A stretch of DNA of 43,929 nt, from positions 1 through 43,929 of IMG/VR virus record IMGVR_UViG_2654588006_000005; one strand, written 5' to 3'. The notes beneath the pieces are model-generated. The model was not told where the DNA came from. It ran no database searches and worked only from the letters and a program-made list of their open reading frames with translations. The DNA comes from a virus (taxonomy: Duplodnaviria > Heunggongvirae > Uroviricota > Caudoviricetes). This document shows positions 55 to 31,633 of the stretch, piece by piece. A program made the translations under genes and the position numbers. How positions within the stretch are numbered: position 1 is the stretch's first letter; every line of letters begins with the position of its first letter.

Positions 55-639
55 TTACTCCCTGACAGGGTTCGTAGGCCACTCAATATCAGGTGCAGTT
101 GATGTATCAACACGGTTCAGCAACACCCGATACTTTTTCCAGGCTTCCAGCAACAAGGTTTCTTCCTCCGTTGCGATTTCCAGATCTACAGCATCCTGAA
201 GTGGCGCAATATGCTCATTCGCTGCCTGCATCAGGCTGTTTTTTGTTTCTTCCGCCTCCCGGATCCGGAATAGTTTTTCTGCTTCTGCATCTTTCACCCA
301 GGCTGTGCCGTTCCACTTCTGAAACTCCCCTTCCGGGGATAACCAAGTGGCATTTTCCGGTAACGGACCGAGTTCAGAAATAAATAACGCGTCGCCGGAA
401 GCCACGTCATAAACCGTTTTACCCCGATGATCTTCAACGAGATGCCACGATGCCTCATCACTGTTGAAAACAGCCACGAAGCCTGCCGGAATATCTGGCG
501 GTGCAATATCGGTACTGTTTGCTGGCAGACCTGTATGAGGCGGAATATATGCGTCACCTTCACCAATAAATTCATTAGTTCCGGCCAGCAGATTATAAAT
601 TTTTATGGTCCGTGGTTGTTCACTCATTCTGAATGCCAT
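55..639 (-). CDS. tfa: tail fiber assembly protein Tfa (194 aa)
   Basis: Translation [24 protein letters not shown]... is near-identical to lambda Tfa as I recall it; same 194-aa length; start overlaps the stf stop. Confidence 0.9.
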
Positions 640-24810: not shown

Positions 24811-25290
24811 TTTTATTCCTACGGGTCTTATTCTGACAATATATCCTGTGTTCCAGACTGCCACATCACCACATCCTGTGCCATTATCTGACTCACATTA
24901 CATACATCGCATCGGGATACAGTAGTAGCACTTTCTGTAATACAGCTTCCGGTTTCTTCCACCATCGCACCGGGATAAATCCGCGAATCATTAACGCGGT
25001 AAAAACCCGGTGTGCATCGTTTTTAATTATTCCCGCACACTCACGCAGAAGGAATTCCCCGTCGGGCTACGGTCATGGTTAATGCGGGAATACGGCGACG
25101 ATACAGCGCAGCTAAAAGGGTAATGGACGGATAGACCGGTTTATTTCATTCTACAGGATTCTGAGTGTCCCCAACTCCCTCCAATCGTCTGAGCTCACCT
25201 GTGTAGTTTTAATTTTCATCAATCCATTTAACTATCGTTTAATTGTTGTCACATAGGATTCTGCCGTTTTTAACAATGCAGGATAATAAG

Positions 25291-25584
25291 ATGAAAAAAA
25301 TGTTGTTTTCTGCCGCTCTGGCAATGCTTATTACAGGATGTGCTCAACAGACGTTTACTGTTGGAAACAAACCGACAGCAGTAACACCAAAGGAAACCAT
25401 CACCCATCATTTCTTCGTTTCGGGAATTGGGCAGAAGAAAACTGTCGATGCAGCAAAAATTTGTGGTGGTGCAGAAAATGTGGTTAAAACAGAAACCCAG
25501 CAAACATTCGTAAATGGATTGCTCGGTTTCATCACTTTTGGCATTTATACTCCGCTGGAAGCGCGGGTGTATTGCTCAAAATAA
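25291..25584 (+). CDS. bor: Bor/Iss-family lipoprotein (97 aa)
   Basis: MKKMLFSAALAMLITGCAQQTFTV...ITHHFFVSGIGQKKTVDAAKICGGAENVVKTETQQTFVNG... near-identical to lambda Bor as recalled; same position between Rz and cos on the opposite strand. Confidence 0.85.
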   Translation: MKKMLFSAALAMLITGCAQQTFTVGNKPTAVTPKETITHHFFVSGIGQKKTVDAAKICGGAENVVKTETQQTFVNGLLGFITFGIYTPLEARVYCSK

Positions 25585-27977: not shown

Positions 27978-28013
27978 GCCGCCCGTGCCTCCCAGCGCGG
28001 GCTTTTTTATCCA
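27978..28013 (+). terminator. candidate intrinsic terminator (plus strand)
   Basis: GCCCGUGC / GCGCGGGC stem (one G-U pair) with CUCCCA loop followed by TTTTTTAT; preceded by a possible TTGCAA-17-TTATTA promoter. Confidence 0.4.
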
Positions 28014-28327
28014 AAAAATACCCCTCCGGAGAGGGGTATCATACAAGGGGATGACCATGATGCATGGTGCCGGGTGCCTCCCGGTGAGTCCGGCATCAGC
28101 ATACGAACCCGCGATTATCCCAGAACTGACTGCTGATTCGCCCCGCCGCTTAGGGGGATTCACCATGCGTTTTTTTATTTACAAACTCTTCGCCAGACAA
28201 ACAACCATTAACTGGCTGAATTGTGAGGTATTTCAATTTTTAGAAAACTGACCAACCTCCGCTTATACGCCGGGCATGGAGCGGATACAAAAAAGCCCCG
28301 CAAAAGCAGATCAGAAGGATTCGTTGT

Positions 28328-28608: not shown

Positions 28609-29670
28609 TCACAAAATTGTATTTGCTGATAACATACTGATTTCCTGGATGGTCTGATTAAACCGCTCTGTCTCAAGCTCAACACCTAACGCCCGACGCC
28701 CCAGCGCCATTGCTGCTTTTATTGTGGAACCGGATCCCATAAAGAAATCAGCAACCAGATCGCCGGGTCGACTACTGGCATTGATTATTTGCCTGAGCAT
28801 ATCCGCCGGTTTCTCACACGGATGTTTACCCGGGTAGAACTGAACGGGTTTATGCATCCAGACATCGGTATAAGGCACGGAGACTGATACGGAGAAATAG
28901 CGCCGGAGAGATTTAAACTCATCCAGCAATTCAGAATATTTGCGATTCAGTGAATCATAAGATGCCACCAACTGGTGGTGTGGTTGTTCCAGTTGTTGTT
29001 CCTGAAACTTCTCTGCCGCTATACGGGAAAACAGTGCCTGTAACTTCCGGTAGTCAGCCTCATTCGGCAACTGCCACTGACTGGCACCAAACCAGTGGGA
29101 AACCATATTTTTCTTACCTGTGGCTTCGGCAATTTGTTTTGCCGTTATACCCAGTTCGGCACGAGCATCCCTGAAATACGATATCAGCGGTGCCATTATG
29201 TGCTGTTTGAGTTCCCTTTCTTTTGCCACATAGCCGTCACTTTTGCCGCGATATGGCCCCCGGTAATGTTCAGCAAACAGAACGCGCTCTGTGGCAGGAA
29301 AATATGCGCGCAGACTTTCTTTATTACACCCATTCCAACGTCCGGACGGCTTCGCCCAGATGATATGGTTAAGCACGTTGAAACGTTCACGCATCATGAT
29401 CTCAATATCAGATGCCAGGCGATGCCCACAGAACAGGTAAAGGCTTCCGGCAGGTTTCAACACCCGCCAGAACTGGGCCAGACAGTGGTCCAGCCACTTA
29501 AGGTAATCTTCGTCCCCTTTCCACTGATTGTCCCAACCGTTGGGTTTCACCTTGAAGTAAGGCGGATCGGTAACAATCAGGTCAATGGAATCATCAGGCA
29601 GGGACTGAATAAAATGCAGGCAATCAGCGTTGATTAAATCAATACTGTTTATTTTTACAGTGTTTTTCAT
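28609..29670 (-). CDS. orphan DNA amino-methyltransferase (N6-adenine or N4-cytosine, beta-class; 353 aa)
   Basis: DPPY motif near the N-terminus (LIVTDPPYF) and FMGSGST (FxGxG SAM-binding) near the C-terminus; no adjacent restriction endonuclease gene. Confidence 0.85.
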   Translation of the reverse strand: MKNTVKINSIDLINADCLHFIQSLPDDSIDLIVTDPPYFKVKPNGWDNQWKGDEDYLKWLDHCLAQFWRVLKPAGSLYLFCGHRLASDIEIMMRERFNVLNHIIWAKPSGRWNGCNKESLRAYFPATERVLFAEHYRGPYRGKSDGYVAKERELKQHIMAPLISYFRDARAELGITAKQIAEATGKKNMVSHWFGASQWQLPNEADYRKLQALFSRIAAEKFQEQQLEQPHHQLVASYDSLNRKYSELLDEFKSLRRYFSVSVSVPYTDVWMHKPVQFYPGKHPCEKPADMLRQIINASSRPGDLVADFFMGSGSTIKAAMALGRRALGVELETERFNQTIQEISMLSANTIL

Positions 29671-29819: not shown

Positions 29820-30014
29820 TCATTGCTGAAGGCGTCTGTAACAGCCGAACTGGTAATCTGCCAGCCCCGCCATAACCAGCTGGGTCAGTATTAACTGACA
29901 GCGTTCGCGTGAAAGGTATGTGTTTTGTGCTATCTCCCCGACTGTTGCCGGTTTGCCGTTTAATTCATTAAAAACAACTTTCGCCGTTTCTGTCATATCT
30001 TGCTGTTTTAGCAT
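29820..30014 (-). CDS. hypothetical small winged-helix-like DNA-binding protein (64 aa)
   Basis: KPATVGEIAQNTYLSRERCQLILTQLVMAGLA helix-turn-helix-like segment; lies between the AT-rich cargo gene and the methyltransferase. Confidence 0.4.
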   Translation of the reverse strand: MLKQQDMTETAKVVFNELNGKPATVGEIAQNTYLSRERCQLILTQLVMAGLADYQFGCYRRLQQ

Positions 30015-30137: not shown

Positions 30138-30158
30138 AAAAAAACCGCGAGAACGCGG
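30138..30158 (-). terminator. intrinsic terminator downstream of the AT-rich cargo gene
   Basis: CCGCG-AGAA-CGCGG hairpin followed on the minus strand by a U-tract (plus-strand A7), about 38 nt past the ORF stop. Confidence 0.5.
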
Positions 30159-30195
30159 TAAGTATTGTTAAAAAAAAACAGTAATTTCACTCAAC

Positions 30196-30726
30196 TTATT
30201 TAATACATTCTTTTGCTTGCGCATAATAAATTTTATGAGTATTAGCAAGCTTAACGAAGTTATACTTAACTGCCCCTAACAGGGTTCCAACTCTTGTATG
30301 CCCTTCCATTAAATGAAGCCCTGTTGTATTACTTTTCAGCAAAGCTCGATCTATAAAAAATGGAGGTTCACACCATGTGCCAAAATTACACCAATGCGCT
30401 TTTATTTCATCATCCATAAATACATCGCCTTTACGGGTTGTGAAATCTTCAACGACCTCATGCAAAAAATCAGGGTAAGTAGCATTATCCCCGATAGTTA
30501 AAAAATTTTTAGTGGGAAGTTCAATCAATTTCCATTCGATTTGGTCAATATTAAGATCCCCATAAAGCTCCTGAAATCTGTCATAACCTGCCAATCCATA
30601 ATAAATCTCCTGAATTACAGGAGTGGGGGCGGCGATAGAATATTGCTCACGAAGTATTCTTTCAGCCTCAGGAGCTTTAAATATGGGTCTTTCTGAGAAA
30701 ATAGGCAAAAGATCTCGGTATAACAT
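30196..30726 (-). CDS. hypothetical protein (176 aa) encoded by an AT-rich cargo gene immediately downstream of pR'/tR'
   Basis: Markedly lower GC than flanks; GGGGA RBS; bounded by tR'-like and downstream terminators; no signal peptide; C-terminal EGHTR motif only faintly ParB/Srx-like. Confidence 0.6.
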   Translation of the reverse strand: MLYRDLLPIFSERPIFKAPEAERILREQYSIAAPTPVIQEIYYGLAGYDRFQELYGDLNIDQIEWKLIELPTKNFLTIGDNATYPDFLHEVVEDFTTRKGDVFMDDEIKAHWCNFGTWCEPPFFIDRALLKSNTTGLHLMEGHTRVGTLLGAVKYNFVKLANTHKIYYAQAKECIK

Positions 30727-30740
30727 CCATATCCCCGTGT

Positions 30741-30775
30741 AAGAAAAAATAATTTAACCCGCTCGGCGGCGGGTT
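30741..30775 (-). terminator. tR'-like terminator ending a short 6S-like late leader RNA
   Basis: AACCCGC / GCGGGTT stem followed by AAATTATTTTTTCTT on the minus strand, about 50 nt downstream of the predicted pR' start site. Confidence 0.5.
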
Positions 30776-30814
30776 CTTGGACTCATCAACGGTAGACATA
30801 CAAAGCCCATCGTT

Positions 30815-30850
30815 GGGAAAATCTTATCCATATTTTTTGAGAAATGCAAG
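30815..30850 (-). promoter_or_regulatory. late promoter pR' (and presumably the Q-utilisation site)
   Basis: Minus strand TTGCAT-17-TAAGAT followed by ...CCAACGATGGG..., closely paralleling lambda pR' (TTGACT-17-TAAATT...CAACGATGGG) as recalled; about 35 nt downstream of the Q stop. Confidence 0.6.
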
Positions 30851-30880: not shown

Positions 30881-31633
30881 TTATCTCGTCACCTTTCTCA
30901 ATTGTGCTTCAGCGAATGCTTCTTCCTGCCAGCACTTTGTTACCAGTTTATCAATGACGTCTGCATATCCTTTGTACCACTGATAATCAGTCAGGTCTGG
31001 TACCAGCTTCTGGACATGACGTCGTGCCAGTGTGGTCGGTAAACGACTAAACCGGTTTCCATTGCAACGCCCACAAATCTTATAAACAGGCGCGCCATGA
31101 AGCCGGGTTCTTTTTTCATCCAGGACAATGCCTTTACCCTTACACCCTCTGCAAGCCGTGCTGACTTCTCCCTTACCATGGCAATGCTGACATAATTCCT
31201 TCACCCACTCTTCCTTGATAACAGATTCCCCGCTTCTGGAGTGTTTCACCACTTCGCGCAATACACTATGAAATCCAGTACCAGCACAATGCTCACAGCG
31301 AGCCTTACTTGCCGCAGACCTGGAATAATCAGCAAAGGCAAAACTCACAAGGTAAGGGATGATCTGTAACCGGGTTTCTTCACTCAATTTGTTCAATGTC
31401 GGGTTATCCATTGCCATCGCGTAATTGAGCAGACCTTCAATCGCAAACTGAGGATCCTGAACACCAACTTTTGCCAGGAATAAGGCAAACCCAAGCGGTG
31501 CTTTCGACTGCACCATCCCCTGCGCAGCCATCACATCCGTAATCGTTAAACCACCTGAGCCTGTCGCCGGTGCGTCATCGCTCAATTTTGGAGATTTTGG
31601 GGAGTAATATTTTGGTAAGGCTTCAAGGTTCAT
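30881..31633 (-). CDS. Q: late gene antiterminator Q (250 aa)
   Basis: N-terminus MNLEALPKYYSPKSPKLSDDAPATGSGGLTITDVMAAQGMVQS parallels lambda Q; Cys-rich zinc-finger-like region CEHCAGTG...CQHCHGKG...CRGCKGKG. Confidence 0.85.
   Translation of the reverse strand: MNLEALPKYYSPKSPKLSDDAPATGSGGLTITDVMAAQGMVQSKAPLGFALFLAKVGVQDPQFAIEGLLNYAMAMDNPTLNKLSEETRLQIIPYLVSFAFADYSRSAASKARCEHCAGTGFHSVLREVVKHSRSGESVIKEEWVKELCQHCHGKGEVSTACRGCKGKGIVLDEKRTRLHGAPVYKICGRCNGNRFSRLPTTLARRHVQKLVPDLTDYQWYKGYADVIDKLVTKCWQEEAFAEAQLRKVTR

Follow-up and report, generated by a model that had tools for sequence, protein, structure and literature searches.

A cargo gene with a predicted ParB/Srx-like core behind the late promoter of a lambdoid Escherichia coli prophage

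In phage lambda, the late promoter pR' is constitutive, and its transcripts end at the terminator tR' unless the antiterminator Q has modified the polymerase; Q loads at a sigma-dependent pause induced by a −10-like sequence, the AACGATGGG element. A classical phage 'moron', as defined by the Hendrix laboratory, is a unit of promoter, gene and terminator. Here, we studied an AT-rich cargo gene (positions 30196-30726, minus strand) located behind the pR' and tR' of a lambdoid Escherichia coli prophage, in a stretch of DNA of 43,929 nucleotides (nt) (IMG/VR record IMGVR_UViG_2654588006_000005, hereafter the window). It is a real, selected gene and no toxin of any known kind, and its product of 176 amino acids (aa) is predicted to be a very divergent member of the ParB/Srx superfamily.

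Domains with the ParB/Srx fold use the arginine of a GxxR motif to bind nucleoside triphosphates (NTPs) and act as CTP, ATP or GTP switches; the phosphotransferases Srx, SerK and SbnI belong to them, and Osa is a nuclease in some reports. The ParB-CTPase fold is a widespread NTP-binding module on mobile elements, where a survey with PF02195 as the probe found orphan ParB/Srx-fold versions to be enriched on plasmids and prophages (PMC12704722).

The cargo gene, its slot and its terminators

The start codon of the cargo open reading frame (ORF) was set by its homologues, all of which begin M-[LF]-Y-x-[DE]-L, and a Shine-Dalgarno-like GGGGA (30732-30736, minus strand) can be read 5 nt ahead of the ATG. 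The GC content of the gene is 36.9%, compared to about 45%-52% in its flanks (0.45-0.52 in 300-nt windows over Q and the methylase gene downstream). Upstream lies the late antiterminator gene Q (30881-31633, minus strand), whose 250-aa product is of the YdfT/Qin type (PF03589 Antiterm, E 1.7e-53; phrog_127, E 5.7e-108) and is annotated in RefSeq as an antitermination protein. The initial annotation had described an AT-rich 176-aa ORF after Q, pR' and a hairpin, and the ORF, Q and the GC content were all confirmed.

The late promoter pR' occupies positions 30809-30849 (minus strand), with a −35 box TTGCAT (30849-30844), a 17-nt spacer, a −10 box TAAGAT (30826-30821) and AACGAT (30814-30809), the last being identical to the sigma-dependent pause element of lambda. 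On direct alignment, the window reads TTGCAT-17 nt-TAAGAT-TTTCCC-AACGATGGG and lambda reads TTGACT-17 nt-TAAATT-TGACTC-AACGATGGG; the spacing and the AACGATGGG element are common to the two promoters, in line with the parallel to lambda that had been proposed. A simple promoter scan missed this site, the −35 box agreeing with the consensus at three of six positions, and found no other sigma-70-like site on the coding (minus) strand between 29600 and 31000. As the cargo has no promoter of its own, it would depend on pR', whose promoter activity and start site are assigned by analogy with lambda and should be read as putative. The promoter itself is invariant, and the stretch from pR' to the hairpin almost so, across SfV, Ayreon, a phage of the Shiga toxin (Stx) subtype Stx2k and a second E. 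coli allele of the cargo.

The tR' hairpin and its interrupted U-tract, UUAAAUUAUUUUUU, lie at 30744-30775 (minus strand). The GC-rich 7-bp stem (30775-30756; arms AACCCGC and GCGGGTT around CGCCGA) folds with −11.7 kcal/mol, and the left cargo junction is located directly after GCGGGTT, with the cargo ATG 29 nt past the stem and 17 nt past the T-run. Of the hairpin/U-tract terminator described in the initial annotation, the hairpin stood and the U-tract did not: the seven-U tract of phages with an empty slot has become UUAAAUUAUUUUUU in the window, and the T-score (d'Aubenton-Carafa type) is 2.37, compared to 5.05 in SfV. The downstream terminator claimed for the cargo itself is present, consisting of ACCGCGTTCTCGCGG followed by T7 (30138-30159, minus strand; z −2.6; T-score 5.05), and the right cargo junction lies directly after it. 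In the second E. coli allele, the tR' hairpin has three substitutions, one of which breaks the stem, and its −6.8 kcal/mol is no better than that of shuffled sequences, whereas the cargo terminator is identical in both alleles. The hairpin of the Salmonella copy is likewise degenerate (−6.9 kcal/mol); those of Klebsiella and Enterobacter are intact, at about −12.5 kcal/mol.

A near-identical hairpin, (A)ACCCGC-N6-GCGGGT(T), is the tR' of phages with unrelated Q families (PF03589 and PF06323), as seen at 30756-30775 of the window and at loci L011 (4951-4972), L024 (4962-4980) and L003 (7425-7445). This shared hairpin could act as a short homology that lets late-leader cassettes move between phages.

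Phage SfV can be aligned base for base with the window over two stretches, one running from Q to the end of the hairpin and the other from GGCAGTACGG to orf47, and it lacks the whole segment between them. Since SfV is collinear on both sides without this segment and Ayreon has a different gene at the same place, the cargo gene is an insertion, which bears out the earlier proposal of a horizontally acquired gene directly behind pR'/tR'. Ayreon, mEp460 and an Stx2k phage have a small ORF at this point, together with a gene for a 141-aa predicted lipoprotein (MKKVLIAAIGFCLVGC..., lipobox LVGC, phrog_4748); DNA matches show the same for a series of Stx2c phages. This lipoprotein gene (minus strand; L002 3049-3474 in phage Ayreon and L015 6490-6915) is bracketed by two copies of the tR' hairpin. 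All three slot states occur among a spread sample of 5426 complete E. coli genomes, 90 of which (about 1.7%) have the cargo, each as a single full-length copy; 82 of these carry one allele at an identity of at least 99% and eight carry the other at 95.9%. An attC-like site suspected by eye at the cargo 3' end was rejected, as the palindrome there is imperfect, spans just 29 nt and has its core sites in the wrong order.

The slot had been equated with the one that carries stxAB in Stx phages. In phiSTEC1575-Stx2k, a Q of the same type is followed by small ORFs, the 141-aa lipoprotein gene, an orf47/TrmB-like gene, a helix-turn-helix (HTH) gene, three tRNAs, stx2A, stx2B, further genes and the holin gene. 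The stx2AB genes are thus about 2.3 kb downstream of Q, and the position equivalent to the cargo is held by the lipoprotein gene. By this gene order, stx shares the Q-to-S interval and the late transcript with the cargo slot but has a different insertion point; the earlier equation holds for the interval and fails for the point. Like stx2AB, the cargo is AT-rich, follows Q, pR' and tR' and precedes holin and endolysin, is present in some and absent from other phages that are otherwise collinear, and would be expected to receive a boost from Q. Unlike stx2AB, it abuts the tR' hairpin, comes without a promoter and takes the place of the terminator's U-tract. The comparison with a moron is similarly divided: the cargo is a single extra gene among backbone genes with deviant GC content, its own terminator and a presence/absence polymorphism, but no promoter of its own is detectable, and the cassette borrows pR', just as its Vibrio homologue is a promoterless integron cassette.

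Homologues, selection and the predicted fold

Homologues with 47%-59% identity were found directly after Q and ahead of the lysis genes in several other backbones. Prophages of Klebsiella oxytoca have a lambda-type Q (PF06323), the homologue and a holin, and those of Enterobacter have Q, the homologue, a 195-aa ORF and a different holin and endolysin; both show the same layout of pR', a hairpin with five to six U residues, the gene 20-25 nt further on and a second terminator. Defective prophages of Salmonella have Q and the homologue followed by remnants, and a metagenomic prophage remnant has the homologue without Q, so that intact copies are kept in defective remnants devoid of lysis and structural genes (L018 from Salmonella and L022 from the metagenome). 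In Hafnia prophages, the order is Q, the homologue, a 197-aa reverse gene of no known family, orf47, the methylase gene and the holin gene. Here, the Q 3' end is repeated, together with pR' and tR', after the homologue and the reverse gene (L003, 7330-7460 and 5910-6003), which places the homologue between Q and this copy, upstream of its pR'/tR'. The recombination that brought in the Hafnia cargo probably took place in the Q 3' end and not at the terminator. A location behind tR' is therefore usual (E. coli, Klebsiella, Enterobacter) and not universal (Hafnia). All copies are AT-rich, with 37%-42% GC.

The family extends beyond prophages. A homologue with 42% identity is common in Vibrio parahaemolyticus, V. 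alginolyticus, V. vulnificus, V. harveyi and Photobacterium. In V. parahaemolyticus it occurs twice within 3.4 kb (L028, 1-3431), in an array of single genes spaced by 133-nt repeats with attC-like ends, and because of this setting we regard it as a superintegron cassette. A 264-aa relative lies among genes for ParA, a replication protein, ParDE and an integrase in a plasmid-like locus, and a relative in Nocardia stands as an orphan on the chromosome. The neighbours differ from one context to the next, with no gene kept throughout, and homologues are single-gene units in five prophage backbones, Vibrio integron cassettes and plasmid-like elements; the protein must therefore act alone.

The coding sequences carry the mark of purifying selection. 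Between genera, synonymous sites are saturated, while the nonsynonymous divergence (dN) is 0.27-0.57. The ratio of nonsynonymous to synonymous divergence (dN/dS) is 0.19 for Klebsiella versus Salmonella and 0.33 overall for the two E. coli alleles. All 12.5 nonsynonymous changes between the latter fall in the first 100 codons, together with 5.5 synonymous ones, and the region of the predicted ParB/Srx core has no nonsynonymous and four synonymous changes. The initial annotation had asked about an absence of selection or frameshifted homologues; what was found is a dN/dS of 0.19-0.33 and full-length copies in all 90 E. coli carriers. The cargo is thus translated and under constraint, its product combining a catalytic or binding core that is conserved with an N-terminal part that is more plastic.

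The 176-aa protein is a full-length member of PHROG 8867 (E 1e-96), which has neither a functional annotation nor a fold assignment. A word-indexed search returned 22 clusters, enterobacterial except for a few metagenome or run-assembly sequences and labelled hypothetical throughout. An exhaustive HMMER search returned 162 representatives at E ≤ 1e-3, of which 36 were at E ≤ 1e-10; most homologues are 165-185 aa long, and some have a helical C-terminal extension of about 90 aa. Conservation was assessed on 66 distant homologues that are 20%-38% identical to the query. W65, W112, W118, P122, G142 and R145 are invariant in this set, P34, Y55, T117, E141, L149 and H164 are conserved in at least 90%, and the consensus motif is LHLVEGHTRxG. 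Searches of Pfam, NCBIfam, PADLOC and PDB sequences by phmmer and hmmsearch, with both the single protein and the 66-sequence profile, gave no match, and no family of anti-phage defence models (PADLOC-DB v2) was hit at E ≤ 1; the anti-defence and abortive-infection roles put forward in the initial annotation stay candidates. Pfam matches at E ≤ 10 over the 66 members were scattered (DUF1281 in three, best E 0.0012, and CUE in three) and were treated as chance, with no backing from structural hits. No signal peptide was found in the cargo protein. The initial annotation had likewise recognised neither a signal peptide nor a sequence family. The family is cytoplasmic and acidic (isoelectric point, pI, 5.4 for the cargo protein; family median 5.8), and the cargo protein itself is a stand-alone protein of 20 kDa. 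Nothing was found in the literature under its RefSeq protein accession or PHROG number, and the literature on ParB/Srx-fold phage defence proteins yielded no characterised relative.

An N-terminal helical region (residues 1-60) precedes the predicted core (residues about 60-176). The local pattern predicted for the latter consists of PPFFID (strand 123-126), GLHLME (strand 137-141), G-H-T-R-VGTLLGA (helix 143-154) and a last strand at 163-171, which is the strand/helix pattern of a ParB/Srx core. Codons E141-G142-H143-T144-R145 (30292-30306, minus strand) form a GxxR signature, P-motif or Box II-like, at the junction of strand 137-141 and helix 143-154. Among the 66 homologues, G142 and R145 are invariant and E141 is conserved in at least 90%, with the motif at the start of the helix. 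The predicted alpha/beta core corresponds to the one common to ParB N-domains, sulfiredoxin, SerK/SbnI and DUF262. The faint ParB/Srx hint that the initial annotation had drawn from LMEGHTRVG is thus borne out by the predicted fold and the invariant GxxR.

Profile comparisons show how far the family has diverged. Neither the query nor any of the 66 homologues matched ParB-related Pfam families, even at E ≤ 10. With hhalign, the targets were human Srx, a four-sequence ParB N-domain alignment, a PF02195 prophage protein (locus L024) and its 23-sequence profile, two reference sequences having been confirmed against PDB. No comparison with ParB/Srx was significant (best P 0.0089, probability 4.5%, with the 23-sequence PF02195 profile), and human Srx gave no relevant alignment. 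The three ParB comparisons covered the core only and agreed in register, placing EGHTR on AGERR or AGHGR (the GERR of ParB and the GHGR of the PF02195 protein). Canonical ParB also has a C-terminal dimerisation domain and a parA gene next to it. Its HTH domain, Box III motif ENLQR and ParA-binding motif are absent from the cargo protein, the chain ending five residues past the last core strand, and for lack of these elements the protein is not a partition ParB. No parA was adjacent to a cargo homologue in any context examined. On its predicted structure, we assign the cargo protein to the ParB/Srx superfamily, as a very divergent member outside Pfam ParB_N that may bind NTPs through GxxR.

Small or stand-alone members used for comparison were PadC (6ryk), the pNOB8 ParB N-domain (5k5d), sulfiredoxin (6ky4 and 1yzs) and the plasmid protein Osa (4ovb). 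In common with these, the cargo family has a predicted core of two strands, a GxxR helix and a strand, with an invariant arginine, and its PPxFID...hhEGHxRvG parallels xPIxV...hhAGERR or DGHHR. Like Osa and many orphan ParB folds, the protein is small, stand-alone and carried on mobile elements (PMC12704722). Unlike them, the family is invisible to PF02195 and to other Pfam, NCBIfam and PDB sequence profiles, and it has a unique 60-residue N-terminal helical domain together with the invariant W65, W112 and W118.

Expression, function and rival explanations

The arrangement of the locus suggests how the cargo may be expressed. The cargo is a promoterless cassette of gene and terminator that recombined into the late-operon leader of a lambdoid E. 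coli prophage, directly after the tR' hairpin. By analogy with lambda, Q antitermination would produce a burst of cargo transcription from pR', and the cargo would still be the first gene boosted at induction. Basal expression in lysogens, as part of the constitutive leader transcript, is also probable, because the insertion removed the U-tract of tR' and the cargo terminator would do the stopping instead. In the E. coli lineage, this strong terminator may have taken over the role of tR', stopping unmodified polymerase ahead of the lysis genes. The earlier statement that the gene is expressed only after Q action is made doubtful by the lost U-tract in the window, the decayed hairpins of the second allele and Salmonella, and the perfectly conserved cargo terminator.

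The sole biochemical lead on the function of the cargo is its predicted fold. The conserved core may perform the chemistry, and the variable, faster-evolving N-terminal domain may set target specificity. We tentatively favour an NTP-dependent accessory 'conflict' protein, a switch or enzyme used where mobile elements and hosts clash, acting in lysogen exclusion or defence or in counter-defence, as the most likely class, because the protein is stand-alone, occurs on three kinds of mobile platform and combines a conserved core with a fast-evolving N-terminal domain. The intact copies in defective prophages and integrons agree with a benefit outside the lytic cycle. A fuller account, which we put forward as speculative and rather doubtful in its entirety, is that the family forms a new conflict module of one gene, whose product is an NTPase or switch with a divergent ParB/Srx fold and a fast-evolving N-terminal specificity domain, and which spreads without a promoter between the late-leader slots of prophages, integrons of Vibrio and plasmids. 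Terminator take-over in E. coli would have turned the normally non-coding pR'-tR' leader RNA into an mRNA, and a 'late' promoter would drive a lysogenic-conversion gene for exclusion or defence in the uninduced state.

The main rival to the conflict-protein reading is a strictly late lytic factor, which is possible but somewhat less likely. Here, tR' would still be efficient, and no protein would be made until Q antitermination, when it would be the earliest late product and the most abundant one. It would serve the induced phage, for instance as a nuclease or NTPase directed at the DNA or nucleotide pools of the host or a competitor, or as a factor for counter-defence or against satellites that is needed in packaging and lysis. 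The state of tR' speaks against this, with the U-tract gone from the window and decayed hairpins in the second E. coli allele and Salmonella, and so do the intact genes in remnants without lysis or structural genes and the copies kept outside any lytic cycle, in Vibrio integron cassettes and Nocardia chromosomes. An acidic family would also be unusual for a DNA-binding nuclease. Alternatively, the protein could be a detached ParB-like regulatory subunit of the N6/N4 methyltransferase encoded downstream (28609-29670). Phages are enriched in ParB-fold/N6_N4_Mtase fusions (PMC12704722), phage DNA-modifying enzymes, the thymidine dioxygenases, can be activated by ParB-like proteins (PMC13229309), both E. 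coli and Hafnia have an orf47-like gene and a PF01555 methylase gene downstream of the cargo, and the methylase lacks whatever the first 114 positions of the phrog_67 profile represent. However, SfV, Ayreon and many E. coli prophages with an empty or otherwise occupied slot have this methylase module and not the cargo gene; no methylase gene lies within 5 kb of the cargo in Klebsiella, Salmonella, the Vibrio integron, Nocardia or the plasmid-like locus; and a terminator separates the two genes. As the two co-occur only in E. coli and Hafnia, we rejected this improbable partnership.

Two further explanations concern what the cargo might do outside the phage, or whether it does anything at all. 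A lysis-released toxin or virulence effector acting outside the bacterium, like Shiga toxin, was among the options of the initial annotation and is now the least likely of all. It would fit the interval between Q and holin shared with stx, the induction-coupled expression that the late promoter would give, as for Stx, and the clinical and avian pathogenic isolates among the carriers. The cytoplasmic, acidic protein has no signal peptide and no likeness to any toxin fold, however, and it is encoded away from the stx insertion point; the family also occurs in environmental Vibrio integrons, plasmid-like elements, Nocardia chromosomes and metagenomes, and the carriers come from a mixture of habitats and hosts (wastewater, cattle, poultry, dog, fox and human). 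Only slightly less remote is a selfish or neutral passenger that hitch-hikes with no function for phage or host. The rarity of the gene in E. coli (90/5426 genomes) and the truncated or frameshifted variants in the protein database (P0003, P0007, P0020, P0021 and P0022) would suit a passenger, but purifying selection is clear, with synonymous divergence saturated between genera, the motif residues are invariant over 66 distant sequences, none of the E. coli copies is truncated, and the slot has been filled repeatedly and independently.

Neighbouring features and implications

The methyltransferase gene (PF01555, minus strand) is located two genes downstream of the cargo, and its product covers just positions 115-350 of the 743-position phrog_67 profile, whose members often have extra N- and C-terminal regions. 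The intervening orf47 (29820-30014) was rejected on comparison as a homologue of lambda orf-64. Between the methyltransferase and holin genes, a non-coding gap of about 900 nt contains a match to the Rfam STnc100 small RNA (28009-28197, minus strand; 114.5 bits, gathering score 47). This is the part of the late operon that holds tRNAs and stx in Stx phages; no tRNA gene was found within the window. The prophage has a second cargo just past Rz/Rz1, an iss/bor-type lipoprotein gene (25243-25584, plus strand; a serum-survival moron) on the opposite strand to the lysis genes. At the far end of the window, Rfam IS009 is matched at 98-296 (minus strand; 213.9 bits).

The kind of slot, the kind of fold and the PHROG number of this gene family were already known. 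New are the fold assigned to a family that Pfam does not detect, its dissemination as a cassette without a promoter among the late leaders of prophages and in Vibrio integrons, and a possible terminator take-over. Since PF02195 misses the cargo family, the predicted fold would extend the ParB/Srx superfamily into uncatalogued sequence space. The family is directly testable, as the protein is soluble, of 20 kDa and stand-alone, with one obvious point mutant, R145A. Should the protein serve in defence or counter-defence, it would be an additional single-gene system, carried by about 1.7% of complete E. coli genomes and by many Vibrio integrons. If it is expressed in lysogens, prophages would have a simple route to gain lysogenic-conversion genes without importing a promoter, and this would bear on how tightly the late region of Stx-type phages is silenced.
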